Source of the DNA: Candidatus Binataceae bacterium | GTDB lineage: Bacteria > Desulfobacterota > Binatia > Binatales > Binataceae | Direction: 5' to 3' | Assembly: GCA_035493515.1 (NCBI GenBank) | Contig: DATJID010000007.1 | Coordinates: 55 to 64,054, forward strand | DNA length: 64,000 nucleotides | Notes under the pieces: model-generated | The model's database searches: none | What the model was told of the DNA's origin: nothing | The model's input: the letters and a program-made list of their open reading frames with translations, nothing else | Program-made: the position numbers and the translations under genes | In this document: piece after piece, positions 3,012-63,626 of the stretch | Layout of the letters: each line of letters opens with the position of its first letter | Position numbering within the stretch: the first letter of the stretch is position 1

Positions 3012-5411
3012 ATGGCCATCATCGAGAACGAACCGCGCGCCTCGGGCGGCCCCGGTATCGAGCCGCGCTGGACCCATAGCGCCAAGGACGTTGTCGGCAC
3101 CGCCTACTCCACCGCGAGTCCCATCTGGTTCACCGCCTCGGGCGGCGTGCTCAATGAAATCTACTATCCGACGATCGATCGGCCGCAAATCCGCGATCTG
3201 CAGTACCTGGTGACCGACGGCGAAACTTTTTTCCACGACGTCCATCGCAACCAGGACACTTCCATCGAGTACCTCGGCGATCGCGGCCTCGGCGTGCGCA
3301 TAATCAACGCCGACCGCGAGGGGCGCTACCGCGTGGTGATGGAGATCATCACGGACCCGCATCAGCCGTGCCTGCTGGTGGACACGCGGCTGGAAGGCGA
3401 GGCCGACCTGCTGCGCCGCCTGCGGCTGTTCGTGCTGCTCTCGCCGCATCTGAACGTCGGAGGCTGGGGCAACAGCGCCAACGTGGCGCGGATGGCCGGG
3501 TACGAGTTTCTGACCGCGCACAAGGACAATACCTGGCTGGCTCTGGGGGCCAACGTGCCGTTCGTGCGCCGCTCCTGCGGCTACGTCGGCAAGACCGACG
3601 GATGGCAGGACCTCAATCACAATTTCAAGCTCGACTGGCAGTTCGCCTCGGCGCCGGACGGCAACGTTGCGCTGACCGCGGAAATCGCCCTGCCCGAGGA
3701 CTACCGCTTCACCCTTGGCCTGGCTTTCGGCAACGGCCTGCATCGCGCGGTTACCTGTCTTTATCAGTCGCTCGGGGTGCCGTTCGCGCAGCACTCGGCG
3801 CGCTTCCTGGAGCAATGGAACCGCGCCTGCTTGCACATGTACCCGCTGGAGCGATGGACCGGCGACGGCGGCCATCTCTGCCACAGATCCCGCGAATTGC
3901 TGCTCGCGCACGAGGACAAGCGCTTCTCCGGCGCGCTCATCGCGTCACTGAGCATCCCGTGGGGCGAGGTCAAGGGCGACGAAGACCTCGGCGGCTATCA
4001 TCTGGTATGGACTCGCGACATGGTCAACAGCGCGACCGGGCTGCTCGCCGGCGGCGACCTTGCGACTCCGGTGCGCGCGCTCATCTACCTCGCGTGCTCG
4101 CAGCGGCCCGACGGCGGTTTCCCGCAGAATTTCTGGATCGACGGCACGCCCTACTGGCAGGGCATCCAGCTCGACGAAGTAGCCTTTCCGATCGTGCTGG
4201 CATACAGGCTGGTGCATGCCGGCGCGGCGATGGGTCTGGATCCGTACCCGATGGTGCTGGCGGCCGCGCGCTACCTGATTCACGAAGGCCCGGCCACGCC
4301 GCAAGAGCGATGGGAGGAGAATAGCGGCTACTCGCCCTCGACGCTCGCGAGCAATATCGCGGCGCTGGTTTGCGCGTCGAACCTGGCGCATGGGCGCGGC
4401 GACACGACGACGGCGCAGTTTCTGCTCGACTACGCCGATTTCCTCGAATCGCATATCGAACGCTGGACCGTAACCAACCAGGGCTTTCTGGTGCCGGGCA
4501 TCAAGCGCCACTACGTACGAATCAATCCCGCCGACTCCGCGCTCACGGTGCCCAATGACGATCCCGACCAGGGGTTGGTGCCGATCCGCAACCGCCCGCC
4601 CGGCGCGTCCTATCTATTTCCAGCGGCCGAAATTGTCGACGCGGGCTTCCTGGAACTGGTGCGCTACGGTATCCGCCGTCCCGGCGACCCGCTGGTCGAG
4701 GATTCGCTGCGGGTCGTGGACGCGGTGCTCAAGACCGATTTCCCGGCCGGGCCCTGCTGGAAGCGCTATACCCATGACGGCTACGGCCAGCGTGACGACG
4801 GCGGCCCGTTCGTGGGATGGGGCGTCGGGCGGCCGTGGCCGCTGTTGAGCGGCGAGCGCGGCCATTACGAATTCGCAGCGGGCCGCGATGTCATCCCATA
4901 CCTGCGCGCGATCGAAAACTTCGCCACTTCGACGCGGCTGTTGCCCGAGCAGGTCTGGGATGGGCCCGACCTGCCGGCGGCGCTGATGCATTTCGGCGGG
5001 CCGACCGGGGCTGCGATGCCCCTGATGTGGGCGCACGCGGAGTACCTGAAGCTTCTGCGCTCGGCCGCCGACGGCGTCATCTTCGATCTCATCCCCGAAG
5101 TCGCGCAACGCTACCGCGACGGGACGCCGCGCGGCCCAATCGAGGTTTGGAAGCACAACCGGCAAATCGAGTCGATCACCCTCCCGTGCAAGCTCCGCAT
5201 CCACAGCGGTGAGCCCTTCATGCTGCACTGGAGCAAGGACGAATGGCATCACGTCTTCGACAGCCATTCAACCCACACTGCGGTGGGACTCGATTTCGTC
5301 GATATCGAGGTCACCACCGCCGACCGCGCGCCCGTGCGCTTTACTTTCTATTGGAAGACGCGTGAGCAGTGGGAAGGCCGCAACTACGCAGTTGAATTGC
5401 GCGCGGGCTGA
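3012..5411 (+). CDS. glycoside hydrolase family 15 glucoamylase (glucan 1,4-alpha-glucosidase / glucodextranase-like)
   Basis: 799 aa. N-terminal GIEPRWTHSAKDVVGTAY beta-sandwich signature, then catalytic (alpha/alpha)6 motifs YHLVWTRDM and ERWEENSGYSPSTLA. Confidence 0.9.
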   Translation: MAIIENEPRASGGPGIEPRWTHSAKDVVGTAYSTASPIWFTASGGVLNEIYYPTIDRPQIRDLQYLVTDGETFFHDVHRNQDTSIEYLGDRGLGVRIINADREGRYRVVMEIITDPHQPCLLVDTRLEGEADLLRRLRLFVLLSPHLNVGGWGNSANVARMAGYEFLTAHKDNTWLALGANVPFVRRSCGYVGKTDGWQDLNHNFKLDWQFASAPDGNVALTAEIALPEDYRFTLGLAFGNGLHRAVTCLYQSLGVPFAQHSARFLEQWNRACLHMYPLERWTGDGGHLCHRSRELLLAHEDKRFSGALIASLSIPWGEVKGDEDLGGYHLVWTRDMVNSATGLLAGGDLATPVRALIYLACSQRPDGGFPQNFWIDGTPYWQGIQLDEVAFPIVLAYRLVHAGAAMGLDPYPMVLAAARYLIHEGPATPQERWEENSGYSPSTLASNIAALVCASNLAHGRGDTTTAQFLLDYADFLESHIERWTVTNQGFLVPGIKRHYVRINPADSALTVPNDDPDQGLVPIRNRPPGASYLFPAAEIVDAGFLELVRYGIRRPGDPLVEDSLRVVDAVLKTDFPAGPCWKRYTHDGYGQRDDGGPFVGWGVGRPWPLLSGERGHYEFAAGRDVIPYLRAIENFATSTRLLPEQVWDGPDLPAALMHFGGPTGAAMPLMWAHAEYLKLLRSAADGVIFDLIPEVAQRYRDGTPRGPIEVWKHNRQIESITLPCKLRIHSGEPFMLHWSKDEWHHVFDSHSTHTAVGLDFVDIEVTTADRAPVRFTFYWKTREQWEGRNYAVELRAG

Positions 5412-5455
5412 GTAAGCGGGACCGCGAATTCGATCGTCACGGCCGACTCCAAAGT

Positions 5456-6430
5456 TCAATTCCTCTGGACCGGACAGCCCGCCTTGTTCCAGCCTTCCAT
5501 CCCTCCGCGCAGAATGAATACTTGCTCGAAACCCGCTTTCGTAAGCACTGCCGCGGCGCTCGCCGAGCGCTGCTCGCTTCTTCAAACGGTTATCAGGGGC
5601 TTTCCCTTGAGCTCGGACAGCTCGCGAATTCTTCCCCGTAGCTCCGCGATCGGAATATTGATCGCGCCTGCGATATGGCCCAGCGGTCCTTGAAATTCAT
5701 CGGAGGCGCGCACGTCTAGCAGCACCGGCTCCGCGCCGCTCTGGAGCCGGCCTCTGAGGTTGCCCGCATCGATAAAGCGCGGACCCTTGAGCCGGCGCAC
5801 CAGCCGCGGCAGGAAAGCAACGGCCGCAAGCAACCCCAGGGCAAGCAGAGCCTTGCGGATTGCCCCGGCCTGCCCGGATGCGGCTTCGCGGCCCGCGTAA
5901 CCAAGGTAGGTAAACGCCAACGCCCCCGGAGCCATGAATATAAAGGATGCGAGTACATACTCAGCAAACCGAATTCGTGTCAGTCCGAACGCGTAATTGA
6001 CCAGATTGAACGGAAACAGCGGCACCAGTCGCACGAAGGCCACAAAGCGCCACCCTTCCTCCTCGACTCCCCGCATCAGCCGGGTCAGTCGTTCTCCCGC
6101 GCGCCTGGAAACCCAATCCGAGGCGAGGTAGCGGGCGATCGCGAAGGCGAGCGCGGCGCCCAGGGCCGCGCCGATAAGGTTCCACAGGGTTCCCCATACC
6201 GGGCCGAACAGAGCACCTCCGGCCACGGTCATTATTGATCCGGGTGCGAATGCGACGGTGCCCACGGCGTAGAGCAGAACGAACAGAATCGGCGCCAGTC
6301 GGCCGAAACGATGCAGTTCACGATTCAGGACCGAAGGCTCGAGCCAGCTTCGATGGAGCGCCAGGTAAGCAATCGCCGCGAGCAGCGCCGCAACGACGAT
6401 CAGACGCCCGACCATACTACGATGGTTCAT
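5456..6430 (-). CDS. TVP38/TMEM64 (DedA-superfamily) membrane protein fused to a C-terminal rhodanese domain; in-frame TGA (5582..5584) at the rhodanese active-site Cys position (candidate selenocysteine, or a nonsense lesion)
   Basis: Track ORF 5582..6478 carries the SNARE_assoc/TVP38 core (LLYAVGTVAFAPGSIMTVAGGALFGPVWGTLWNLIGAALGAALAFAIARYL) and the first half of a rhodanese domain (PVLLDVRASDEFQGPLGHIAGAINIP...GKPLITV). The same frame after the TGA reads RSEQRSASAAAVLTKAGFEQVFILRGGMEGWNKAGCPVQRN, then TGA at 5456..5458. This is the expected C(U)-R-S-x-x-R-S loop plus the rest of the fold. Start placed at ATG 6428..6430, which overlaps the upstream gene stop (ATGA). Confidence 0.6.
5550..5577 (-). 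promoter_or_regulatory. putative bacterial SECIS-like stem-loop downstream of the in-frame UGA
   Basis: mRNA nt 8-35 after the U of UGA: GC-GA-GCAGCGCUC-GGC-GAGCGCCGC-G-GC. By-eye pairing gives a 9-position upper stem with one A/C mismatch and an apical loop starting with GG 17 nt after UGA. Not computationally folded. Confidence 0.4.
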
Positions 6431-7209
6431 TGCGCACTCCTCCCTGCAATCGGGTATCCGCCCGCGGAGCCGCGCCATGGCTGCAGCAGCATCCGATCGA
6501 TCCGCAATTCGCGCACGTCGCGGAACTGCTCTATCCCGATGGCCATGCCGTCATGGCCGGCAGCGGGCTGGTCACGATAAGTTCCGAGCAGGCGATCCCA
6601 CCATGGCAGGTTGAAACCGAAATTGCTGTTGGTCTCCGTCACGACGATCGAGTGATGCACCCGGTGCATGTCTGGCGTTACCATCAGCCATCGAAGATAG
6701 CGATCGAACCAAACCGGGATGCGAAGATTACCATGGTTGAACATCGAAGTTGCATTCAGCAGGACTTCGAAGCTGAGTACGCCGAGCGCCGGCGCTCCCA
6801 GCGCCACCACCAGGCCGAACTTGAACAGCATCGAGAGCCCGATTTCGATCGGATGGAAGCGCGCGCCCGTAGTCACATCGAAATCCAGGTCGGTATGATG
6901 CATCCGATGCACCCGCCACAGGGCTGGCACCGCATGGAACATCACGTGCTGCAGATAGATGGCGAAGTCCAGGATCACCACGGACACGACCACCTCGACC
7001 CACGATGGGAACGGCAGGTTGTTGAACAGTCCCCAGCCTCGTTTCGCTCCAAGCACGGCCAGAGCTACGGCCGTGGTCGGGAGCACAACCCGAATGAGAG
7101 CCGTATTAAGAGCCACGATCGCGAGATTGCCCGGCCACCGCGTGAACCGGGAATACGCGCGGGGACGGCGCGGCGCCGCCGCTTCCGACAGCGCCATCGC
7201 GGCGAACAC
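6427..7209 (-). CDS. fatty acid hydroxylase / sterol desaturase superfamily membrane protein
   Basis: 260 aa with His boxes HVMFH, HRMHH and HRVHHS plus hydrophobic segments. Confidence 0.85.
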   Translation of the reverse strand: MFAAMALSEAAAPRRPRAYSRFTRWPGNLAIVALNTALIRVVLPTTAVALAVLGAKRGWGLFNNLPFPSWVEVVVSVVILDFAIYLQHVMFHAVPALWRVHRMHHTDLDFDVTTGARFHPIEIGLSMLFKFGLVVALGAPALGVLSFEVLLNATSMFNHGNLRIPVWFDRYLRWLMVTPDMHRVHHSIVVTETNSNFGFNLPWWDRLLGTYRDQPAAGHDGMAIGIEQFRDVRELRIDRMLLQPWRGSAGGYPIAGRSAQ

Positions 7210-7293: not shown

Positions 7294-7530
7294 TCAGGAT
7301 TCGATACGGCGAATCGAAAAGGCTGCGCTCAGCGAATCGAGCAGCGCATCGACGTCGGCCGCCGACCCGGCGTCGAAGCACAATCGCAGATAATGATGGC
7401 GCGGGTCCTCGGTGCGCATCGTGGCCAGGTTGTCGTACGATTCGACGATCGCCTTGAAACGCGCTATCGCGGCCGGCTCGATGGCCAGCAGCACGGATTG
7501 AAATGAAGCCTTGTTAGTCGATTCCGTCAT
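7294..7530 (-). CDS. small conserved hypothetical protein (possibly DUF4911-like)
   Basis: 78-aa ORF on the same strand as the downstream desaturase, with non-repetitive composition. Family assignment is from memory only. Confidence 0.4.
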   Translation of the reverse strand: MTESTNKASFQSVLLAIEPAAIARFKAIVESYDNLATMRTEDPRHHYLRLCFDAGSAADVDALLDSLSAAFSIRRIES

Positions 7531-7621: not shown

Positions 7622-8623
7622 ATGGCGCTCGCGCGGCTAATCCTGGTCACCGGCAAGGGCGGCACCGGCAAAAGTGCGGTGGCCGCGGCGCTTGCGCTCT
7701 CGCTGGCGCAACGGCGGCCCACGACACTGGTCGATCTGGACCAGCGGATGTGGGCGGCGCGGATGCTTGGGGTAGCGGCGCACGATGGTAACCAAGCCAG
7801 CTCGCGCCATGGCGCAGACGCGACCTCAAAGCTTGACCCGATCGCCGACCTGGAAACCATCTCGCTTAGCGCAAGCGCCGAGCTCGAAGCGTTCATCGAA
7901 AGGATAGTGCCAATTAAAGCCGTCGCGCGCCGGATGCTCCAGAGCCGCACCTTCGGCTACGTCAGTGCCGCGCTGCCGGGGTTGGAAGCGTTCCTGATGC
8001 TCGAGCGCCTGCGCATTATCGCCGGCCGGGCCGCGCTGGAGGACCGCTACGCAGTGGTCGATGCGCCGGCGACCGGCAGCGCGCTGGAACTGCTCGCGGT
8101 CCCCGGCGCGCTCAAGCGGCTTGCTCCGATCGGAACGCTCAACCGTCTCGCCGCCAACGTCGAAAGCTTCCTCGCCGACGCGACGCGCTTTGCCGTGATA
8201 CTGACGCTGACGCCGCAGGAGCTGGCGCTGCGCGAAGCGCTGGAGGCCTCCGACGTACTGCGCGGACGGCTCAACGTGAGCGTCGCGGCGGCGGCGCTCA
8301 ACTGCGTGCCGTCGGCGCTGTTCACCCGCAGTGACCTCGACGCGCTGGAGGCGCCGCCGGGGCATCCAGGATGCGCGCGCCTGGCGCAGTGGCGCGACGG
8401 CGCGGGACGCATCGCGGCGCGGATGCGCCGCGATGCGTCCCGCGCCGGGCTGGGCGTGGTCGAACTGCCGATGCTGTTCAGCCCGGCGCTCGGCCGGGCT
8501 GAACTCCAAGAGCTGAGCCGGGTGCTCGACGCGTGGCTGTTCCCGGCTCCGCCGGGAACAGCCCCGCGCCGGGCGGGAAAGCCGCCGCGCGCGGCAAGAC
8601 CGCGCGCGGCTAAATCACGATGA
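7622..8623 (+). CDS. ArsA/Get3-like P-loop ATPase (first of a pair)
   Basis: LILVTGKGGTGKSAVAAALALSLA deviant Walker A. Resembles the Rv3679-type partner of actinobacterial ArsA-like pairs (from memory). Confidence 0.8.
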   Translation: MALARLILVTGKGGTGKSAVAAALALSLAQRRPTTLVDLDQRMWAARMLGVAAHDGNQASSRHGADATSKLDPIADLETISLSASAELEAFIERIVPIKAVARRMLQSRTFGYVSAALPGLEAFLMLERLRIIAGRAALEDRYAVVDAPATGSALELLAVPGALKRLAPIGTLNRLAANVESFLADATRFAVILTLTPQELALREALEASDVLRGRLNVSVAAAALNCVPSALFTRSDLDALEAPPGHPGCARLAQWRDGAGRIAARMRRDASRAGLGVVELPMLFSPALGRAELQELSRVLDAWLFPAPPGTAPRRAGKPPRAARPRAAKSR

Positions 8624-9771
8624 TTGCCACGCACCCGGCGCACGGCCTGCTCGCGGGCCGGCTCCTCGTCTGCCTGGGCCCGGGCGGCGTAGGCAAGACC
8701 ACCGTCAGTGCCGCGCTAGCGCTTAGCGCCGCGATGGCCGGGCGGCGGGTCGACGTGATGACCGTCGACCCGGCGCCGCGCCTGCTCGACGCGCTGGGGC
8801 TCGGCGGCGTCGACGCCGCCGAGCCCCGCGGAGTGCCGCTGGAGGGTTTGGCAGCCACGCAAGCCATCAACCAGGCGGAGGGCGATGCGGCGGGTGCGCG
8901 CAGGCGTCCCGCGCGACCCGCCGGACGCCTGCGCGCACTGCGCCTGGACCCCAAGCGCACCTTCGACGCGATCGTCGCGCGCCACGCGCCCTCGCCCGCC
9001 GCCGCCGACGCGATCATGCAAAACCGCATCTACCGCAATCTCTCGCAGGCGCTGGCCGGAGTCGGCGATTATATGGCGATGGAGCGGCTGCTCGAACTCA
9101 GCGAGGAGTCGACGACCAACCTGGTGGTGCTCGACACGCCGCCCGCGCGCGAGGCGTTGGACTTCCTCGACGCGCCGCGTCGCCTGCTCGACCTGCTCAA
9201 CTCGCGCGCGGTGACCCTGCTCGGCGGCGGGATGCGCCGCGGATTCAGCGTCGTTGACCTCGCCGCGCGCGCCGTGCTCTCAGCCTTCGACCGGCTGACG
9301 GGACTGCATCTGCTAGGCGACGTGCAAGCCTTCGTGCGTAGCTTCGACGGGATGTATGCGGGATTCGCCGAACGGGCCGGGCGCGCGCAGCGACTCCTCG
9401 TTGCCAGCGACACCGCGGTGGTCGTCGTCACCACGGCTGAGCCCGAGCGCATCGCGCAGGCGCACGAGTTCCTCGACGCACTGCGCGCGGCTGGAATCGA
9501 GCCGCGGGCGGTAATTATCAATCGCACGCTGCCCACGATTCCGTCGATGGGGCAGATCAGGCGCGCGCCGCTCGGACCGGCGCTAAGGCGCAAACTCATC
9601 CGCGCGGCCGGAGAGTTCGCCGCGTTGCGCCAGCGCGAAGCCGCGGCGATAGCTTCCCTGCGCGCCGGCGGATTGCCGCAACTGGAACTCGCCGCGTCGC
9701 CCGATCTCGGACGAGAACCGATCGACCTTGCTGATCTCGCCTGGCTGGGGCAGAGTCTGGAAATTCTATAA
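8620..9771 (+). CDS. ArsA/Get3-like P-loop ATPase (second of a pair)
   Basis: VCLGPGGVGKTTVSAALAL...TVDPAPRLLDALGL, typical of the ArsA_ATPase family. ATGA overlap with the upstream ATPase gene. Confidence 0.85.
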   Translation: MIATHPAHGLLAGRLLVCLGPGGVGKTTVSAALALSAAMAGRRVDVMTVDPAPRLLDALGLGGVDAAEPRGVPLEGLAATQAINQAEGDAAGARRRPARPAGRLRALRLDPKRTFDAIVARHAPSPAAADAIMQNRIYRNLSQALAGVGDYMAMERLLELSEESTTNLVVLDTPPAREALDFLDAPRRLLDLLNSRAVTLLGGGMRRGFSVVDLAARAVLSAFDRLTGLHLLGDVQAFVRSFDGMYAGFAERAGRAQRLLVASDTAVVVVTTAEPERIAQAHEFLDALRAAGIEPRAVIINRTLPTIPSMGQIRRAPLGPALRRKLIRAAGEFAALRQREAAAIASLRAGGLPQLELAASPDLGREPIDLADLAWLGQSLEIL

Positions 9772-21584: not shown

Positions 21585-23309
21585 CTACGGAGTGGCTAGC
21601 ACAACCGTATTATCGTCCATCGTAACCGCGCCTGTTCCGGAGACGGCCCCAGCCAGTGCTCTGCCATTCAGCGTTGCGCCGCTCACCAGCGTGATTGAGG
21701 TATTGGCGAGAATGGTTCCGACAAATTGAGAACCGACGCCAATGGTCGCCGAGCTGCCCACTTCCCAGAAGATCTGTGAAGGTTTGGCCCCGCCCGCAAG
21801 AGTGATCCCGAATCCGGACGAAGTGGTCAGAGTTGAAGCGATCTGAAAGATAAAGACCGCGTTCGGATCGCCGCCGGCGTCCAGCGTGAGGTTACCGCCG
21901 CCCGATATCTCCGTCGAGGTTCCGGACCTGTAGAGGCCTGGGGTGAAGGTCAATCCACCCACATTGCCGTCGGCGGGAGTGAATGGCCCAACGCGGCCTG
22001 CAGCGTTGCCATACGCGATTCCGAGGGCTGCCTCGGCAGCCTGAGCAGTAGTGTCATTCACATGGACCGCTCCAGTCACTATCCCCGGCGGAAAATTAGT
22101 CATCGACGTGCCCGGCCAGATGCCCACATCTCCCGTAATCGTGGTCGGCGTCGATGTGTTGCTAACTCCGGCGGCGGCTAGGACCGCGAAGCTGGCAGCC
22201 GCGCCAAGCGGTACCGGGCTCAAATCCGAAGATGCGCCGGTGGTAAATTGCCATACCTTGTCAGCCGCCAGGGGGTTACCGGCAAGATCCTGGGCTTCGG
22301 TGGTAATCGTAGCGGTATACAGCGTGTTGTTCAGAAGATTCGCCTGCGGCACAAAGGTCGCCTGGGTCACGTTGTTTATCGAATCGTAAACATAAGTAAC
22401 GGTTCCCACTACGCTCCCACCCGACCAGGTCAGAAGGAAATTCCCGGTAGTAATCGTCGCGTAGTTCATCACTTCGCTGAAGGTCGCGCTGACTGTCTGA
22501 TCCAAAGGTACGCCCGTCGCACCATCGGCGGGAATCGTCGAAGTCACAGTCGGATCGACGGTATCCGGACTTGCGCCCGTAGTGAAACTCCATACATAGT
22601 CCGCGGCCAGCGGATTGCGGGCCACATCTTTGGCTCCGGTCGTAATCGTCGCGGTATACTGAGTGTTTATCTTCAACCCATACGTAGGAACAAATATCGC
22701 GGTTCCGGAAACGTAGTGGACGGCTCCTGCGATTGCGACGCCGCCTGGTTTAGTCACCTTGAAGTTGGTGGTGTTGATTGACGCGGGAGCCATGTCCTCG
22801 CTGAAGGTCGCGATGATGCGCTGATTAGTTGGTACACTCATCTGAAGGTCTGCGGGATCGGTCGAAGTCACCGTCGGCGCGGTGGTATCGGAGGCGGCGC
22901 CGGTAGTAAAGCTCCATTTATACGCTACCCCCATCGCGATGCCTGCCAGGTCCGACACCTCGGGTCTGATTCTGACGGTATACGTCGTATGGGGCGCCAG
23001 GTCGACCAGCGGCCTGAAGATCGCGGTCCGATTATATAAGGCGATGGTCCCGCTCACGGCAACGCCGTTCGGCTTCCGGACGATCAGACAGTCAGTCAGC
23101 GATGGCGCGGACATCTGCTGGCTGAAGGTGACTGCCACCGGCTGGTTGACCGCGACGCCAATCGCGTTATCAGCGGGATTTGTCGCGGTCACTTTGGGCA
23201 CAATCGAGCCTGGCCCTCCGTTCTGCGATCCACTGACTACTGCCCACGCGGACATGAACGCGACCAGGATTATCGCGATGAACCCGAATCTAAGCGGTTC
23301 TTGTTTCAT
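21585..23309 (-). CDS. secreted protein with three SbsA/Big_5-type Ig-like domains and a C-terminal DUF3494 ice-binding-like beta-helix domain
   Basis: Signal/TM at the N-terminus. Three repeats start VT(A/S)T.PAD... and end W.FTTGA. The C-terminal part begins LGAAASFAVLAAAGVSNTSTPTTITGDVGIWPG, the hallmark start of DUF3494 ice-binding family proteins. Confidence 0.8.
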   Translation of the reverse strand: MKQEPLRFGFIAIILVAFMSAWAVVSGSQNGGPGSIVPKVTATNPADNAIGVAVNQPVAVTFSQQMSAPSLTDCLIVRKPNGVAVSGTIALYNRTAIFRPLVDLAPHTTYTVRIRPEVSDLAGIAMGVAYKWSFTTGAASDTTAPTVTSTDPADLQMSVPTNQRIIATFSEDMAPASINTTNFKVTKPGGVAIAGAVHYVSGTAIFVPTYGLKINTQYTATITTGAKDVARNPLAADYVWSFTTGASPDTVDPTVTSTIPADGATGVPLDQTVSATFSEVMNYATITTGNFLLTWSGGSVVGTVTYVYDSINNVTQATFVPQANLLNNTLYTATITTEAQDLAGNPLAADKVWQFTTGASSDLSPVPLGAAASFAVLAAAGVSNTSTPTTITGDVGIWPGTSMTNFPPGIVTGAVHVNDTTAQAAEAALGIAYGNAAGRVGPFTPADGNVGGLTFTPGLYRSGTSTEISGGGNLTLDAGGDPNAVFIFQIASTLTTSSGFGITLAGGAKPSQIFWEVGSSATIGVGSQFVGTILANTSITLVSGATLNGRALAGAVSGTGAVTMDDNTVVLATP

Positions 23310-27100: not shown

Positions 27101-29635
27101 CTACTTCACCAGACGGATCTGACCAAGCGTAGCAGGCAAACCGGTCACGCCAACGGCGGTGGTGGCGCTGCCCACGCTCGGCCTGCTCGCACCTATGCCG
27201 CATGGGGGCACGCTTTGCACCGAGGTGCCTATGACGGCGACTCCGGTGTCGCTGCCACAGCCGACGGGGGTCGCCGCGATCAGCAAAAACAACGCTGAGA
27301 ACAAACGTATCCGGCGGCGGTTTCCGCTGGATGCGAAAACCAACCCAAAGCCGATCAGGCCCAGAACCTCGCAGAGGAGCGCAGCCAACCGTCCCGCACC
27401 GCGCCCGCTACCGGAGACCGTTGATCCCGGGGAGCCGAACCGTCGAGCAACCTGTGATGCTCCGTTCATGCCCGCCCGTAACGTAAGGGCCGCCTTCCCC
27501 CCAACGGGAACGACCAGCGGAGGCGCGAACGTGAACGTGACAATGGAGCTCAGTGGTGCGGAAAGCGCTGCCTGAACCGGTCCTCTCTCGACGCTCGCGC
27601 TCAGCGACAAAAACGAAAACAGGGCGGGATTACTCACATTCAATGTCACCGTGCTTACCGTTTCGGGCAGACTGCCGGTATTAGTCAGCGTCATGACGCC
27701 ACCTTCGACGGGCTGTCCCGCGGAGCCCGACGACCTGGTATCCGACGCGGTGACACTCGCGGCCGGCACGGACGGAGGAAAGGCGCCGACCAGCTTGTCT
27801 ATGTCGGCGCTGCCCAACCCGGTTCCCAGGTCGTAGCCGGGACCAACCTGGTAACCGGCAAAGACGGTGCAATCCGGTCCAGCTTGCGGGCAGTTCTGTC
27901 CCGGTTGCGAAACGTCCACCAGCGCCGGACTGCCGGCGGCGGCGAGACAATAGAGCTGCGGATTGATATTGCCCAACTTGCTGGTACCCAGATTGTGCGC
28001 CAGCAAACGCGAAATCCCAGCCCACACGGGCGATCCCGCGCTGGTGCCGCCGTTGCCGAAGAAGCAGAGATTCTGAGTGCCGGGACATCCTGTGCTGATC
28101 TTTATCGGAAACGGCGGAGTGACCGGGCACGGTTTCGAGAAGCAGGCGGCTACCCACAGTCCTGGCTCGTCCGCGTTCGCCACCGAGGCCACGTCAGGCA
28201 CTCCGCGCATCGTAAACTCACCCGGCTTAAGCCCATACGCCGAGATGCTCTCCTGCCAGGCCGGCTTGCCAAACACTACACTGACACCTCCGGTGCTGCC
28301 TCCCTTTGTTGGCGTTGGGGTGGGATTGGGAGTCGCGCTTACAGTAGGGTAGGTGTTCCACACCTGTTCGAATCCAGGCTTCAGAACTGAAGTATCAACC
28401 CCGCCGACGTAGATGGGAGAGAATTGAGTACCACCCACGTTAATCACATCGGGGCTGGCCCCGGTTTCGTCGATACTGGGTTGCACGCCGGTGACGCCCT
28501 GGCTGCTAGCAGGTTGGCCGCAATCGAAAAACGATCCGAAATCGCCCGAGGCGTGAAAGAACGTTTGACCTTGAATCACGGCTTGAGCTTCGAGCGCGGC
28601 ATAGGCGCTGATCTGGGCAAAATCGGCGCACAGATTCCCGCCGTCGTGGATGCTGGAACTGATTGCGCCACACCTATTCTCGCTGACCGCGAGATTTAAC
28701 GCATCGAACTGGTGCTGCAATGAGGCCGGGTCGTTGCTGACGTAAAGCCTGATCGGAGTGTTGGGAGCGACCGCGTGCGCCCACTCCACGTCCAGCTCGA
28801 CTTCGTGATGTTTGGTCCCAAACGAGATCTTCGAGGAAGGTGTCAGCACCACCGCAAGATTCGTCGGGGGCAGATCGAATTGGGTATCGAATGACTCAAA
28901 CTCCGCCGGCTGTATGCTGTCGCCTTCCAGAAGCGCGATGCAATCGGGGCTGCGCGTGCCGCCGTTGCCGCCCGGCGCCATGGGTGAGCTCTGATCATAG
29001 TAGGTCCAGAAGTCCTGCGGGGTAAGATGCGCCGCGTTCGTAGCGGACGGTACATCGGCGCTTTCCAACCCGGCCAAGCTCAGGGGCCGGCCTGCACCCG
29101 GCTTCCCGCTCAAACCGAAAATGGCCGCTACGGTGCCGTCCAAACGCTTAGGAACCCGCGGATCGCTGACGTTCGCGTAGTCACCGGACCTGCTTACGAT
29201 CTCGGCCGAGAACGCGCGCTCCGCCTGGGATACCGTACCGCTAAAGCGGACGGTGCGAGTGACCAGATTGGCGTCAACGATGGTGAGATGATTGTCGCGG
29301 AGCCAGCTAATCACTTTTTTCATCTGGCGCTGGGTCGGACCGAAGCGACGCATGAATTCTGCAGCGCTTAGCCATCGGTGGTAGTTCGCAGAGCCGGGCT
29401 GCTGTAGTTGCGCCTTAAGTTCGTCCATTTCAGGCCGATTACGCAGCGCAAGCACCGCCACCATGTGCAGTTCGCGACTGCCGGCCGCATGGCTCCATCC
29501 GGCTAGCGCGACGCTCGAATGATTGCCCGCGATAGCCACAGTCGCTTCCTGAGCCGTCGCGTGCGAAAGCCATAGCGACATCAGCAAACCCATGGTCGTC
29601 AGGAGAGCCGCGCAGAGAAGCTGTCTGTTCTTCAT
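27101..29635 (-). CDS. S53 (sedolisin/kumamolisin) family serine peptidase with pro-domain and a long C-terminal extension containing two hydrophobic segments
   Basis: Signal peptide; pro-kumamolisin activation domain (YHRWLSAAEFMRRFGPT...VRFSGTVSQAERAF); catalytic E/D region (HEVELDVEWAHAVAP) and GGTSAGSPVWAGI serine motif. Confidence 0.85.
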   Translation of the reverse strand: MKNRQLLCAALLTTMGLLMSLWLSHATAQEATVAIAGNHSSVALAGWSHAAGSRELHMVAVLALRNRPEMDELKAQLQQPGSANYHRWLSAAEFMRRFGPTQRQMKKVISWLRDNHLTIVDANLVTRTVRFSGTVSQAERAFSAEIVSRSGDYANVSDPRVPKRLDGTVAAIFGLSGKPGAGRPLSLAGLESADVPSATNAAHLTPQDFWTYYDQSSPMAPGGNGGTRSPDCIALLEGDSIQPAEFESFDTQFDLPPTNLAVVLTPSSKISFGTKHHEVELDVEWAHAVAPNTPIRLYVSNDPASLQHQFDALNLAVSENRCGAISSSIHDGGNLCADFAQISAYAALEAQAVIQGQTFFHASGDFGSFFDCGQPASSQGVTGVQPSIDETGASPDVINVGGTQFSPIYVGGVDTSVLKPGFEQVWNTYPTVSATPNPTPTPTKGGSTGGVSVVFGKPAWQESISAYGLKPGEFTMRGVPDVASVANADEPGLWVAACFSKPCPVTPPFPIKISTGCPGTQNLCFFGNGGTSAGSPVWAGISRLLAHNLGTSKLGNINPQLYCLAAAGSPALVDVSQPGQNCPQAGPDCTVFAGYQVGPGYDLGTGLGSADIDKLVGAFPPSVPAASVTASDTRSSGSAGQPVEGGVMTLTNTGSLPETVSTVTLNVSNPALFSFLSLSASVERGPVQAALSAPLSSIVTFTFAPPLVVPVGGKAALTLRAGMNGASQVARRFGSPGSTVSGSGRGAGRLAALLCEVLGLIGFGLVFASSGNRRRIRLFSALFLLIAATPVGCGSDTGVAVIGTSVQSVPPCGIGASRPSVGSATTAVGVTGLPATLGQIRLVK

Positions 29636-48348: not shown

Positions 48349-49898
48349 ACACCGTCAGTTTCATCAGCATCCCCGGCTCGATCGCTCCCGACCAGGAAAT
48401 CCTGGTCTTTGGCGATCGCAGGCTCAACTACGCAGCACTCAACGAACTGGTCGGGCGTCTAAGTTCGGCCTTCAAGACGCTCGGGCTCAAACCTCGCGAC
48501 GTAGTCGCCGCCCTCGACACCAACTCCGACAACTACATCGCCGGCTACTACGCCGCTGCCAAGGCCGGACTGACCTGGCTCCCGCTCAACTACCGCGCCA
48601 AGGATGCCGAGCTCGAGTACATGATCAACACTGCCGGCGCCAAGGTGCTGCTGGCAGGCGACCGCTACCTCGACCTCGTCGGGCGCGTCGCGCCCAAGCT
48701 AAAAACCGCCAAGGCGGTGGCCTGGGGCGAGGGCAAGGCCGGGATGCAGCGGCTCGCGGACCTGGTCAAGGCGGCCGAGGTAGATGACGGCGAAGTCGAA
48801 GTCGAGGATGAGGACGTCTCGGTCCTGATGTACACCAGCGGCACGACCTCGCTGCCCAAGGGCGTGATGCTGCGTTTTAGGGATTTCGCCGCCTACGTCA
48901 CGGCCAACGTCGAGATGGCCGACGGCAGCGAGCGCGGCGTCGCGCTGGTATGCGTGCCGTTTTACCACATCGCCGGAACCACGGCGATGATGACCAATTT
49001 GTGGACTGGGCGGCGGATGGTGATCATGCCGCAGTTCGACCCCAAGACCTGGCTGCAACTGGTCGCGCGCGAGAAAGTCACCCACGCCTTCGTCGTGCCT
49101 ACCATGATGAAGCAGTTGCTCGACGAGCCGTCGTTCGCCGACACGGATTTTTCGCATCTGACCAACCTGGCCTATGGCGGCGCGGCGATGCCGATTCAGA
49201 CTATCCGGCGCGCGATCGAGGCGTTTCCCAAAACCGTCGGCTTCGTCAACGCATACGGCCAGACTGAGACCACCTCTTCGTTGACTGTGCTCGGTCCGGA
49301 CGACCATCGGATCGACGGCGACGCCAAAACCGTTGAGCTCAAGCTCAAGCGGCTGAATTCGATCGGCCGCCCCTTGCCCGACGTCGAAATCGCCGTCCGC
49401 GACGACGACGGCGCGCTGCTGGCGGCGGGACAGGTCGGCGAAATCCTCATCCGCACCCCGCGCATTATGAAGGGCTACGCCGGGCGCGAGGACGATTCCC
49501 GTCTGCCCGAGGGATGGCGTGCGACCGGCGACCTCGGATGGGTCGACGAAGAGGGCTACGTGTTCTTCGCCGGACGCAAGGACGACATGATCATCCGCGG
49601 CGGCGAAAATATCGCGCCAGCCGAAATCGAGGCCGTCCTGATGAGCCATCCGGGGATCGACGAGGCGGCCGTAATCGGCGTGCCGTCGGTCGAATGGGGA
49701 CAGACTGTCAAGGCCTTCGTCGTCAAACGGCCGGGTCAGAACGTAACCGCGGCCGACCTCGGCGAGTTTTGCCGCACGCGCCTGGCAAGCTTCAAACGGC
49801 CCGAGTCGATCGAGTTCATCGAGGCGCTGCCCAAGAATCCGCTCGGCAAAATTCTGCGCAAGGAGCTGCGTGACAAGGGCGATACGCCAAGGCCCTGA
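48345..49898 (+). CDS. AMP-dependent acyl-CoA synthetase/ligase (class I adenylate-forming enzyme)
   Basis: MYTSGTTSLPKGV, YGQTET, TGDLG, GRKDDMIIRGGENI motifs. The GTGA start/stop overlaps the upstream crotonase. Confidence 0.9.
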   Translation: MNTVSFISIPGSIAPDQEILVFGDRRLNYAALNELVGRLSSAFKTLGLKPRDVVAALDTNSDNYIAGYYAAAKAGLTWLPLNYRAKDAELEYMINTAGAKVLLAGDRYLDLVGRVAPKLKTAKAVAWGEGKAGMQRLADLVKAAEVDDGEVEVEDEDVSVLMYTSGTTSLPKGVMLRFRDFAAYVTANVEMADGSERGVALVCVPFYHIAGTTAMMTNLWTGRRMVIMPQFDPKTWLQLVAREKVTHAFVVPTMMKQLLDEPSFADTDFSHLTNLAYGGAAMPIQTIRRAIEAFPKTVGFVNAYGQTETTSSLTVLGPDDHRIDGDAKTVELKLKRLNSIGRPLPDVEIAVRDDDGALLAAGQVGEILIRTPRIMKGYAGREDDSRLPEGWRATGDLGWVDEEGYVFFAGRKDDMIIRGGENIAPAEIEAVLMSHPGIDEAAVIGVPSVEWGQTVKAFVVKRPGQNVTAADLGEFCRTRLASFKRPESIEFIEALPKNPLGKILRKELRDKGDTPRP

Positions 49899-50670
49899 AC
49901 GCGCGCGTCCGGCGCGCGCCGCGGCGGGCCGGGTCGAAGTCGCTCGCGCCGGCGGATGCGTGACCGCAACGCTCAAGCGGCCGACCGCGCGCAATCGGCT
50001 TGACGCCGCGATGGCGCAGCGGCTGGTCGAACTTGCCGAGGAGGTCGAAGACGATCCGGGAGCGCTGATGCTCGTCCTTCGCGGCGCCGGCGGAAACTTC
50101 TGCGCGGGCTTCGACGACGAGGTCGACACGATCGCTCCGAGCGTGGTTGAATCGATCGCCGTGCTCTCCAAGCCGACGCTCACGATTATCGAGGGCGTTG
50201 CCGCCGATGAAGGGACGGAACTGGCGCTTGCCGCTGACCTTCGCGTCGCCGCGCGATCGGCACGCTTCGCGATGGGCCAGCTAGGGCGCGGCCGGATGCC
50301 GCGCTTTGGCGGTACCCAGCGCCTCCCGCGGCTTATTGGCGCGGCCCATGCGCTCAGAATGCTGCTGACGGGCGCGCAGGTCGATGGTGACGAGGCGCTA
50401 CGCCTCGGACTCGTGACCTATATCGCGCCTGGTCCCGGCCGCGTCGCGCTCGAGCGCGTGGTTGGCGAGGTCGCACGTGCGATCTTAAGCCGCGGTCCGG
50501 TCGCCGCGCGGCTGGCCAAGGAGGCCGTGCGCAAGGGATGCGACTTGACCCTGGATCAGGGTATAAGGCTTGAAGAGGATCTGTACGCCTTGCTACAAAC
50601 CACAGCCGACCGCGCCGAGGGCGTCCGGGCCTTCCTGGACAAGCGCAAGCCGCTGTTTCGCGGCGCCTGA
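49870..50670 (+). CDS. enoyl-CoA hydratase/isomerase family protein
   Basis: TLKRP.ARN.L, GAGGNFCAGFD, EG.AADEGTELALA.D. The 29-nt overlap with the ligase gene leaves the start uncertain. Confidence 0.8.
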   Translation: MTRAIRQGPERARPARAAAGRVEVARAGGCVTATLKRPTARNRLDAAMAQRLVELAEEVEDDPGALMLVLRGAGGNFCAGFDDEVDTIAPSVVESIAVLSKPTLTIIEGVAADEGTELALAADLRVAARSARFAMGQLGRGRMPRFGGTQRLPRLIGAAHALRMLLTGAQVDGDEALRLGLVTYIAPGPGRVALERVVGEVARAILSRGPVAARLAKEAVRKGCDLTLDQGIRLEEDLYALLQTTADRAEGVRAFLDKRKPLFRGA

Positions 50671-50721: not shown

Positions 50722-50841
50722 ATGGCCAACCAGCTGGGAAAAGTTTACATCTGCGGCAAATGCGGATCGCAGGTAATTGTCACCAAGGGCGGCGCGGGCG
50801 CGCTCAAGTGCTGCGGCGCCCCGATGGAACAGAAGAAGTAG
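50722..50841 (+). CDS. desulforedoxin-type small Cys4 metal-binding protein (39 aa)
   Basis: Hand-translated as MANQLGKVYICGKCGSQVIVTKGGAGALKCCGAPMEQKK. Same C-x2-C-x15-C-C spacing; about 60% identical by eye to the 45680 copy over the shared core. Below the ORF-track cutoff. Confidence 0.75.
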   Translation: MANQLGKVYICGKCGSQVIVTKGGAGALKCCGAPMEQKK

Positions 50842-61634: not shown

Positions 61635-63626
61635 TCAGGGCGGGTACAATTCCGTGCTCGTGAGGGAGTTGGTGCCGTTCCAGCCGCCGGCGATGAGCAC
61701 ACGCCCGTTGGGCAGCAGCGTCGCCGTGGGAAACAGCCGCGGGTCGCTCATTGGCGCGCCTGCCGTGAAGGAATTGATAATGGAGTCGTAAATCTCGACG
61801 CTGTCCAGAGGAGTCGAAAATCCATAGCCGCCGCCGATGATGAGAACTTCGCCGTTCGCCGTCGTCGCGGCCGTGGCAAAATAATGACCAGTGCCCATCG
61901 ATGGACCGGTGGCGAAGGCGTCCTGCGATGGGTCGTAGATCTGCGTGCTGGTGAGAATGACCCCCAGACCGGCTCCTCCGGCGATCAACACCTTGCCGTT
62001 CGGCAGCAACGCAACCGAAGGAAAATAGCGCTGCGTGCCGAGCGACCGTTCTACAATCGAATTGTTTGCCGGGTCGTAAAGCTCGGCCACGGTGTCGGTT
62101 TGGGTCGTACCATTCCAGCCGATAATGAACACCTTGCCGTTGGGCATCAGGATCGCCGTACAGAAGGGCTGCGCTACGCTCATGGTCGGGCCAGCACCGA
62201 AAGAATTCGTAGCCGGATCGTAGATCTCGGTGCTGGTCAGGTCACCAGAGGAAGTGGCATCCTCGCCGCCCGCAATCAGCACTTTTCCGTTGGGTAGCAA
62301 AGTGGCTCCGGCGGCAAGCCGAGCTTCAATCATCGATGGTCCCGGAGCGAACGTGTTGGTCGCTGAATTGTAAAATTCCGTGCTGTTCAGGACGCTACTG
62401 CCATCATAACCGGCTGCGATAAGAACTCTACCGTCGCGCAACAAGGTCGCGGTCGCATCCTCACGCGCGTGGCTCATCGACGGGCCGGCGCTGAACGTAT
62501 CTGTTGCCGGATTATATAATTCGGTCGACCTTGTGGCAGTTGTACCGACGGTGTTTCCGCCCGCAATCAGCACCCTCCCGCTGGGAAGCAACGTGGCAGT
62601 GGCGGAGGCGCGCGCCACGGTCATCGGCGGGCTCGTGGTTTTCGACGATGCTGGCGCCGCCTGAGTAATCGCGCCATTGACCGTCGCCACCGATGCCAGC
62701 AGCAGGTCGGGCGTGACCGGCGGATTCTGATTCATCAGAATATTGCCGGGCGGACCATACAGGCCGCCGAACGCGAACCCGGCGGCGACGTATTGAAGCT
62801 GCTGCACACCCGAAAGCGCATCCTGAAAATCACTGGTTCCCGTGATCGCCGGCAGCATCCCGCCGCAATACGGCACCGGCAGGCCCTGGTATCTCCCGTT
62901 GAAGACACCATTGGAGATATCGGCCGCAAGTGCGGCCACCAATCCTCCCGGCGCGTTCGGACACAGGTGCTGGTCTTCATTGATCAGCGCTCCAAGAATA
63001 AGCCCGAGCTTTCCGGCGTCGGTGCCTACGCCGGCCGCCGTGTAGTCGGGCAGCAGCCGCGCGGGATCGGTCGACAATCCGTAGTACGATTCGATCGTCG
63101 CCGTCGCGCTGGACAGCGCCGTCCTTAACGTAACGTGGTCGGCTCGAAGCTGGTGGATGGTCAGCGCCCGGATGAATCGCGTCAGCGGATTGATCGAGAT
63201 GCCCGAGACGTCCGTGGCTGCGCCGGGCAGCAGAACCCTGAGGCTGCCAGGCGCGCCCACCGTGGCGCCGTCCGCTTCGCTGAGGAACGAGCCGCCGGTG
63301 ACGACCAGGCATACCGGGCGCCGATGCGCCGGAATGCTCAGCGTAAAGTTGCCGGAGGCGTCGGTTGTGGCCTTACCCAACAGCGTCACGTTAATCCCGG
63401 ACGTCACGTCGACCGCATACGCCGTCACCGTGCTCCCCACCATCGGCCCTTGTATCGCGGTGCCGGTCAACACGACTCGCGGCGAGACCACTGCTCTGCC
63501 GGTCGGCACGATCGTGGTCGTCTCGGCATCAATCCGACTCGAACCGTAACCGGCGAGCGCAACGCCAACCACCAAAACGGCCACGCAAATCGCCTTCGCT
63601 CTGCCTATGGCCCAACGATGCGCCAT
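61635..63626 (-). CDS. secreted Kelch-repeat beta-propeller protein with N-terminal Ig/CarboxypepD_reg-like domain
   Basis: Signal peptide; seven units of the type ATLLP(N/S)G(K/R)VLIAGG...T.....(E/Q)(L/I)YDP....F. Confidence 0.8.
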   Translation of the reverse strand: MAHRWAIGRAKAICVAVLVVGVALAGYGSSRIDAETTTIVPTGRAVVSPRVVLTGTAIQGPMVGSTVTAYAVDVTSGINVTLLGKATTDASGNFTLSIPAHRRPVCLVVTGGSFLSEADGATVGAPGSLRVLLPGAATDVSGISINPLTRFIRALTIHQLRADHVTLRTALSSATATIESYYGLSTDPARLLPDYTAAGVGTDAGKLGLILGALINEDQHLCPNAPGGLVAALAADISNGVFNGRYQGLPVPYCGGMLPAITGTSDFQDALSGVQQLQYVAAGFAFGGLYGPPGNILMNQNPPVTPDLLLASVATVNGAITQAAPASSKTTSPPMTVARASATATLLPSGRVLIAGGNTVGTTATRSTELYNPATDTFSAGPSMSHAREDATATLLRDGRVLIAAGYDGSSVLNSTEFYNSATNTFAPGPSMIEARLAAGATLLPNGKVLIAGGEDATSSGDLTSTEIYDPATNSFGAGPTMSVAQPFCTAILMPNGKVFIIGWNGTTQTDTVAELYDPANNSIVERSLGTQRYFPSVALLPNGKVLIAGGAGLGVILTSTQIYDPSQDAFATGPSMGTGHYFATAATTANGEVLIIGGGYGFSTPLDSVEIYDSIINSFTAGAPMSDPRLFPTATLLPNGRVLIAGGWNGTNSLTSTELYPP

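Follow-up and report, generated by a model that had tools for sequence, protein, structure and literature searches.

Selenocysteine (Sec)-containing proteins with a rhodanese-like domain are known in five forms, according to a 2026 review of the prokaryotic selenoproteome (PMC13188914), and a Sec rhodanese was first reported as a 'rhodanese-related sulfurtransferase' in the Sargasso Sea selenoproteome (PMC1088965). The consensus model of the bacterial selenocysteine insertion sequence (bSECIS) has a stem of 4-16 bp and a loop of 3-9 nt at 16-37 nt from the UGA, in which the loop opens with G-[G/U] (pattern N1-G-[G/U]-N-N2) and the minimum free energy is at most -7.5 kcal/mol (PMC13188914). For DedA proteins of the COG0398 type, a role as phospholipid scramblases has been proposed, and fusions of DedA proteins to thiol- or redox-active domains have been noted, with rhodanese fusions reported for COG0586 and pyridine-nucleotide-disulfide-oxidoreductase fusions for COG0398, selenocysteine not being mentioned (PMC10127716). 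Here, we analyse a stretch of 64 kb (hereafter the window; contig DATJID010000007.1) from Binataceae, a widespread and uncultured soil lineage. One of its genes encodes a DedA-family membrane domain (VTT) followed by a rhodanese domain, with an in-frame TGA at the catalytic codon of the latter. A previous reading of the letters alone (the sequence-only reading) had proposed that this TGA encodes Sec, noting that rhodaneses using Sec are a known kind and that it knew of no described TVP38-Sec-rhodanese fusion. Both remarks agree with the literature: the former with the five forms of the review, and the latter with the lack of any mention of a DedA, VTT or TVP38 selenoprotein in that review, in the BSepDB paper or in a full-text literature search. 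Our results suggest that the gene is a previously unannotated Sec form of a known family of VTT-rhodanese fusions, with an apparently canonical bacterial SECIS. This result is solid but mechanistically conventional.

The in-frame TGA and its distribution among homologs

The open reading frame (ORF) on the minus strand reads ...ELKGKPLITV up to the in-frame TGA, and the same frame continues for 41 codons, RSEQRSASAAAVLTKAGFEQVFILRGGMEGWNKAGCPVQRN, before ending at a second TGA (Table 1). Homologs of the protein align with it from its first to its final residue. Since they align from MNHRS..., the true start is the ATG at 6430, where it overlaps the TGA of the upstream gene as ATGA, and the position given by the ORF lister (6478) is wrong. 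Of the 28 Pfam-supported genes of the window, 16 end with TGA as an ordinary stop, among them both neighbours of the VTT-rhodanese gene. The genetic code is therefore the standard one, as the sequence-only reading had argued, and a reassigned code is excluded.

We searched Pfam with the protein in which the TGA was read as Cys, and retrieved both domains well above their cutoffs (Table 1). The match to PF00581 extends across the TGA codon. Alignments with sequences of the Protein Data Bank (best match E = 4e-24) place the TGA in the column of the catalytic Cys, which is where the sequence-only reading had put it. For example, TV[C]RSEQRS of the query aligns with TVCRAGGRS of the Burkholderia PRF rhodanese domain 5ve3 (E = 2.6e-16), and weaker matches include the membrane rhodanese YgaP (2moi/5hbl, E = 4e-6 to 7e-6). 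The six-residue loop C/U-x4-R is present as U-R-S-E-Q-R(-S), aligned with C-R-A-G-G-R-S of 5ve3, and by its sequence this U-x4-R loop is of the sulfurtransferase type. The VTT domain is of the TVP38/YdjX type, with an assignment to COG0398 that comes solely from the name given to homologs by the JGI, YdjX (TVP38/TMEM64 family). The AlphaFold model of a Cys-type homolog has a mean predicted local distance difference test score of 58.9, and below 50 in the membrane domain, which makes it unusable for domain geometry.

The exact 282-residue product, i.e. the protein called up to the TGA, is recorded on eight contigs. We retrieved three of them from independent sources (ENA ERZ27252105, JGI 3300020118 and Logan SRR29660189) and found zero mismatches with the window over the gene, the TGA and the downstream frame included. 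Two of these contigs cover the complete gene of 975 nt, and the Logan contig stops 7 nt short. Among the 120 best database homologs, about 100 (70-95% identity, from many samples) also end at the TGA codon, mostly at 282 aa, and 19 with an identity of 61-72% extend to full length (322-342 aa). RefSeq holds the 282-aa product as a 'VTT domain-containing protein' (WP_304820371.1). Public annotation, RefSeq included, thus cuts the protein at residue 282 in about 100 sequence clusters, 42 residues too short, and the catalytic domain is systematically mis-annotated in Binataceae.

We then read the catalytic codon from the DNA of 160 related loci (L001-L160). It is TGA in 56 loci, giving 46 distinct sequences with the window, and these come from soil metagenome contigs and from 11 species-representative metagenome-assembled genomes (MAGs) labelled Binataceae or 'delta proteobacterium'. 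It is TGC or TGT in another 56 loci, from Thiobacillus, Hydrogenophilales, Ectothiorhodospiraceae, Chromatiaceae, Sedimenticola, Dongia and others. In a rough neighbour-joining tree, all TGA-type genes form one clade with three nested Cys forms, and the sister groups are of the Cys type. The metagenomic relative P0007 carries TGT at the catalytic codon (L165:1080-1082) and retains the complete sequence of the hairpin described below, AAGCGCTCGGCGAGCGC. It looks like a recent change from Sec to Cys, and would thereby show that the two residues are interchangeable at the catalytic position. Two further loci, of the Hydrogenophilales type, have GGC (Gly) instead (L036:3715 and L038:3703, in Hydrogenophilales and Thiobacillus MAGs). 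Both lie directly upstream of ArsM-like genes, and the Gly codon predicts an inactive rhodanese domain.

The frame remains open after the TGA, with exactly 41 codons to the next stop in 35 of the 56 TGA-type loci. Among the 46 distinct TGA-type sequences, the ratio of non-synonymous to synonymous divergence (pN/pS) is 0.17 for codons +1 to +3, directly after the TGA, and 0.29 for codons +10 to +40, against 1.27 and 1.30 when the other two frames are read. We found no conserved start codon after the TGA, codon +12 being ATG, GTG, ACG, TTG, ATA or ATC. Hence, the segment is translated from the TGA onward, because purifying selection starts there and there is no conserved alternative start. The sequence-only reading had seen a coding signal running through the stop, and the two sets of ratios give it a measure. 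It had also dismissed a listed ORF of 105 aa with a TTG start (5268-5585, minus strand), which overlaps the post-TGA segment in a different frame, as a shadow of the latter; this is consistent with the pN/pS of about 1.3 in the non-coding frames of the relatives.

A candidate SECIS hairpin downstream of the TGA

We numbered the hairpin from the U of the UGA (position 1). Positions 15-20 (GCGCUC) pair with positions 24-29 (GAGCGC) around the loop G21-[G/U]22-C23, which is GGC in the window. A spacer of 11 nt separates the UGA from the stem, and 17 nt separate it from the loop, as in the hairpin drawn by eye in the sequence-only reading, where a loop starting with GG stood 17 nt from the UGA. 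In the window, two further pairs, G12-C32 and C13-G31, extend the helix across an A14/C30 mismatch, and this extension is only partly conserved among relatives. RNAalifold returned the inner helix as the sole consensus structure. With its stem of 6 bp, its loop C-G-[G/U]-C-G at 17 nt from the UGA and a fixed-structure energy of -8.3 kcal/mol, the candidate lies within the consensus bSECIS model; the Cys-type genes average +2.0 kcal/mol for the same structure.

The stem is invariant across the 46 distinct TGA-type sequences except for two single departures. All six stem pairs form in 44 of these 46 sequences and in only 1 of 52 Cys-type sequences, so that the hairpin predicted from one sequence is conserved among the relatives that have the TGA. 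The third positions of codons +4 to +8, five synonymous sites, have entropies of 0, 0, 0, 0.15 and 0 bits in TGA-type genes, against 0.7-1.7 bits in the neighbouring codons and 1.4-1.74 bits at codons +4 to +8 of Cys-type genes. Likewise, synonymous divergence (pS) is 0.16 in the hairpin codons and 0.56-0.58 in the flanks. Codon +8 is Ser-AGC in all 46 TGA-type sequences and Gln or Lys in the Cys type, and the origin of the SECIS in the VTT-rhodanese gene would have required this Ser-AGC. Two features, the lack of variation at these synonymous sites and the confinement of the hairpin to TGA-type genes, speak for an RNA-level constraint. An Rfam scan of the window gave zero matches, and the hairpin motif recurred elsewhere in the window only as two one-mismatch matches, neither of them downstream of an in-frame TGA.

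Readings of the TGA codon

We consider it very probable that the UGA encodes Sec in a VTT-rhodanese protein of 324 residues, because the catalytic codon is split between TGA and Cys codons, the segment after the TGA is under purifying selection, the hairpin is linked to the Sec type, and neither an assembly error nor a reassigned code accounts for the TGA. The protein would reside in the inner membrane, with an N-terminal VTT/DedA domain and a C-terminal single-domain rhodanese in which Sec283 is the catalytic residue. Sec insertion would follow the canonical bacterial route: SelB with Sec-tRNA(Sec) would bind the GC hairpin (5570-5556) and translation would run 41 codons further to the real stop. 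Failure to insert Sec would yield a product of 282 residues, without the final third of the rhodanese fold. The basic stretch PRLVRRLKGPR, which follows the last membrane helix, makes a cytoplasmic location of the rhodanese domain probable. Sec283 would hold a sulfane-sulfur or selenium adduct, and the rhodanese may cooperate with the membrane domain and with a co-transcribed di-iron hydroxylase-like membrane enzyme. If so, the largely aerobic soil bacteria of the Binataceae use selenocysteine.

Several observations weigh against this reading. The UGA spacing and the loop of 3 nt are at the lower limits of the bSECIS model. The RNAfold test suggested in the sequence-only reading does not discriminate: the fold is no stabler than dinucleotide shuffles (z = +0.79 over 91 nt and +0.11 over 40 nt), as GC-rich coding sequence folds equally well when shuffled. 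Covariation was not significant among 41 distinct sequences, because the stem is invariant; the optional 14-30 pair alone shows A-U/G-C/C-G exchanges among relatives. Since the shuffles are equally stable and covariation is not significant, the support for the hairpin comes from synonymous-site conservation and from its linkage to the TGA, and not from thermodynamics. With ARAGORN, neither the window nor 60 related loci yielded a tRNA-Sec (two loci had a tRNA-Ala and nothing else), and tblastn with SelA and SelB of E. coli gave nothing specific in the 0.9 Mb of DNA from the window and related loci. The window and its short flanks contain none of selA, selB, selC and selD. No second selenoprotein gene, i.e. 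another in-frame TGA with read-through, was convincing in the window, and the ArsS and ArsM-like genes near related loci have Cys forms throughout and no Sec form. We found no literature on selenium use in Binatia/Binatota, the supplements of the Binatota genome paper included.

If the TGA were instead a genuine stop, the gene would encode a VTT protein of 282 residues with a truncated and inactive rhodanese stub, and the downstream conservation would have another cause, e.g. an RNA element or a small peptide translated on its own. This would fit the public gene calls and RefSeq, which give precisely that product, as well as the lack of matches to tRNA-Sec, SelA and SelB in the window and related-locus DNA. 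However, purifying selection acts from the first codon after the TGA (pN/pS of 0.17), there is no conserved downstream start (codon +12 is variable), and the segment completes the rhodanese fold to end where the Cys-type homologs do. A stop at the catalytic codon in 46 distinct sequences that have reached 56% synonymous divergence is not expected of a decaying domain either, and we regard a genuine stop as highly improbable. An error of sequencing or assembly, or a nonsense mutation confined to one strain (a pseudogene), has next to no probability as the origin of the TGA. A single base separates TGA from TGC or TGT, but the exact agreement of three independent assemblies excludes an assembly error, and the recurrence of the TGA in 56 loci, many samples and 11 species-level MAGs refutes this explanation as a whole.

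Read-through might also occur without Sec, if a near-cognate or suppressor tRNA inserted Trp, Cys, Gly or Arg and the hairpin acted as a general stimulator. The base after the stop is C in 41 of the 46 sequences, and UGA-C is a weak termination context; Cys functions at the catalytic position in relatives, and the failure to match any Sec machinery gene in the window and related-locus DNA would be expected. Yet recoding affects precisely the one catalytic Cys that the domain has, the classical signature of a Sec/Cys pair, and the geometry of the hairpin (spacer of 11 nt, apical loop G-[G/U]) fits the SelB-type bSECIS model. Moreover, Trp, Gly or Arg would inactivate the enzyme, and for a Cys product TGC or TGT would be cheaper and expected to sweep. 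This makes insertion of another amino acid very unlikely.

Gene neighbourhood and comparison with known systems

Table 1. Coordinates of the VTT-rhodanese gene, its elements and the gene upstream, in positions of the window.
Feature	Position	Strand	Details
Full read-through coding sequence	5456..6430	-	324 codons + stop; candidate Sec at residue 283
Shine-Dalgarno-like sequence	6436..6443	-	GGGAGGAG; 6-13 nt upstream of ATG 6430; read from sequence
VTT/DedA domain (Pfam VTT_dom, PF09335)	5897..6244	-	residues 63-178; 95.9 bits, cutoff 33.9
Rhodanese domain (Pfam PF00581)	5483..5749	-	residues 228-316; 69.8 bits, cutoff 22.2
In-frame UGA, candidate Sec codon	5582..5584	-	active-site loop U-R-S-E-Q-R-S, catalytic-Cys position
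Post-UGA segment	5459..5581	-	41 codons; C-terminal third of the rhodanese fold
Candidate bacterial SECIS core	5556..5570	-	GCGCUC/GGC/GAGCGC, 6-bp stem (5565-5570 with 5556-5561), loop 5562-5564; RNAalifold, conservation
Extended helix	5553..5573	-	G12-C32 + C13-G31 around A14/C30 mismatch; partly conserved among relatives
True stop codon (TGA) of the read-through frame	5456..5458	-	matches C-termini of Cys-type homologs
Upstream membrane fatty-acid-hydroxylase (di-iron) family gene	6427..7209	-	Pfam PF04116, 91.4 bits; co-transcribed

The gene upstream belongs to the FA_hydroxylase family and forms with the VTT-rhodanese gene a two-gene operon in the window. Its start is probably near 7197, because gene callers give it 256 aa on other contigs. 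Its best NCBIfam similarity is to the ornithine-lipid hydroxylase OlsE (86.5 bits, far under the cutoff of 475). In 101 related loci (49 TGA-type, 51 Cys-type and one other), an FA_hydroxylase gene immediately precedes the VTT(-rhodanese) gene on the same strand, and this pairing is conserved across phyla. A regulator with an ArsR helix-turn-helix and a rhodanese domain adjoins the pair, mostly divergently, in 62 loci (27 TGA-type and 35 Cys-type). ArsM-like (arsenite-methyltransferase-like) genes, below NCBIfam cutoffs, stand directly downstream in several Betaproteobacteria of the Hydrogenophilales type, and in other Cys-type lineages a DsrE-like gene is found near the pair, most commonly directly downstream. 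ArsS (arsenosugar radical S-adenosylmethionine protein, TIGR04167, 426 bits, cutoff 300) is adjacent in 4 Binataceae-type loci. It also adjoins the pair in gammaproteobacterial relatives without the rhodanese domain, and relatives with such a VTT protein show the gene order hydroxylase-VTT-ArsS-ArsM. Examples of these neighbours are found at L109:982-1665 (-), L040, L061, L115:1413-2552 (-) and L026:2474-3730 (+). None of the ArsR-rhodanese, ArsM-like, DsrE-like and ArsS neighbours occurs in the 64-kb window, and we found no literature linking DedA or FA-hydroxylase genes to arsenosugar genes.

A role in 'chalcogen trafficking', as hypothesized in the sequence-only reading, receives indirect support from these neighbourhoods (ArsR-rhodanese, DsrE-like, ArsM-like and ArsS). 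Our best reading is that the protein provides a membrane-tethered sulfur- or selenium-carrier domain which would act in concert with the DedA domain and the di-iron enzyme, a module that relatives may place under a persulfide- or metalloid-responsive ArsR regulator. Going further, the Sec-rhodanese/DedA protein and the invariably co-encoded di-iron hydroxylase could form a membrane module handling an organo-metalloid or chalcogen (arsenic, selenium, persulfide sulfur), perhaps while bound to a lipid or sugar carrier, with Sec as the reactive handle. This is suggested by the ArsR-rhodanese, ArsM-like and ArsS neighbourhoods across phyla, and we hold it to be rather unlikely. If true, Sec would deliver the metalloid or chalcogen to the membrane domain or receive it from there, a role undescribed for any DedA protein. 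The pairing with a di-iron membrane hydroxylase and with ArsR-rhodanese, ArsM-like and ArsS neighbours offers a testable entry to the function of COG0398-type DedA proteins.

Elsewhere in the window, a DUF4911 gene (7297-7530, minus strand) is divergent from two tandem ATPases of the ArsA/GET3 family (7622-9771, plus strand). These resemble mycobacterial BagA and BagB below NCBIfam cutoffs (first ORF, BagA, 66.8 bits for a cutoff of 400; second ORF, BagB, 227.7 bits for a cutoff of 521). The TGA at 50668 was considered as a read-through case and rejected: it is the stop of a crotonase, followed by a separate small ORF rich in Cys. The ORF that it ends (49870-50670) resembles enoyl-CoA hydratase, as judged from sequence. 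The small ORF lies just past this TGA in the same frame (50722-50838, plus strand, MANQLGKVYICGKCGSQVIVTKGGAGALKCCGAPMEQKK), and was taken to be a separate desulforedoxin-like gene, by a resemblance seen by eye, and not a read-through extension. Three large proteins are probably secreted or exposed at the surface, with Big_5 and ice-binding-like domains (21585-23309), a pro-kumamolisin activation domain (27101-29635) and Kelch repeats (61635-63626), all on the minus strand. The remaining genes of the window serve housekeeping or catabolism (TatB/TatC, Obg, ProB, ProA, luciferase-like monooxygenases, a Rieske hydroxylase and acyl-CoA enzymes).

The closest relatives of the gene are the Cys-type VTT(TVP38/YdjX)-rhodanese fusions of Beta-, Gamma- and Alphaproteobacteria, e.g. 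in Thiobacillus, Sedimenticola selenatireducens DSM 17993 and Dongia deserti. They are full-length orthologs at 51-72% identity, with the same two-domain architecture, the upstream FA_hydroxylase gene and, often, the ArsR-rhodanese regulator. They differ by TGC or TGT at the catalytic codon, by Gln or Lys at codon +8 and by the absence of the hairpin. Together with the TGA-type genes they make a natural Sec/Cys series, which includes a TGT revertant with the SECIS hairpin and is useful for studying how a SECIS originates inside a coding sequence. The COG0398 subfamily of DedA proteins shares the PF09335 domain, and YdjX is the name that the JGI gives to the homologs.

The candidate hairpin can be compared with the SECIS of the fdhF/fdnG type in E. 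coli, whose minimal helix starts 11 nt after the UGA. Both are stem-loops within the coding sequence after the UGA, with a small apical loop G-[G/U]. The candidate, a putative SelB-binding site, differs in sequence, lacks the bulged U and has a loop of just 3 nt, or of 5 nt with the closing C-G open. In E. coli YgaP, a rhodanese catalytic domain is similarly tethered to the inner membrane, and YgaP is encoded with the ArsR-type regulator YgaV in the ygaVP operon. Many relatives of the VTT-rhodanese gene have an adjoining gene for an ArsR-family regulator; the ArsR-rhodanese gene is absent from this window. However, YgaP has a short C-terminal anchor of two helices and a catalytic Cys, and no N-terminal DedA-family domain.

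Finally, we compared the protein with the known Sec rhodaneses. It could not be identified as 'form 3' (rhodanese_LYCAU, NF041203, 48.6 bits for a cutoff of 115), as the CxU motif is absent, nor as 'form 5' (the rhodanese/DsbD fusion TsoB, NF045694, 23.7 bits for a cutoff of 805), as it has a single Sec and no UxxxxU. The tRNA 2-selenouridine synthase MnmH/SelU (NF008752/TIGR03167) matches its rhodanese fragment only, with 17-19 bits for cutoffs of 219-266. The comparison by sequence covered forms 3 and 5, the two for which NCBIfam models exist. The likeness lies in the PF00581 domain, the Sec in place of the active-site Cys, the SECIS immediately downstream and the existence of Cys orthologs. 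Whereas the motifs of forms 3 and 5 are CxU and UxxxxU, the VTT-rhodanese protein has U-R-[ST]-x-x-R-S, and none of the known forms is described with a DedA/VTT domain. The membrane-anchored DedA fusion would thus be an addition to the known forms of Sec rhodanese.

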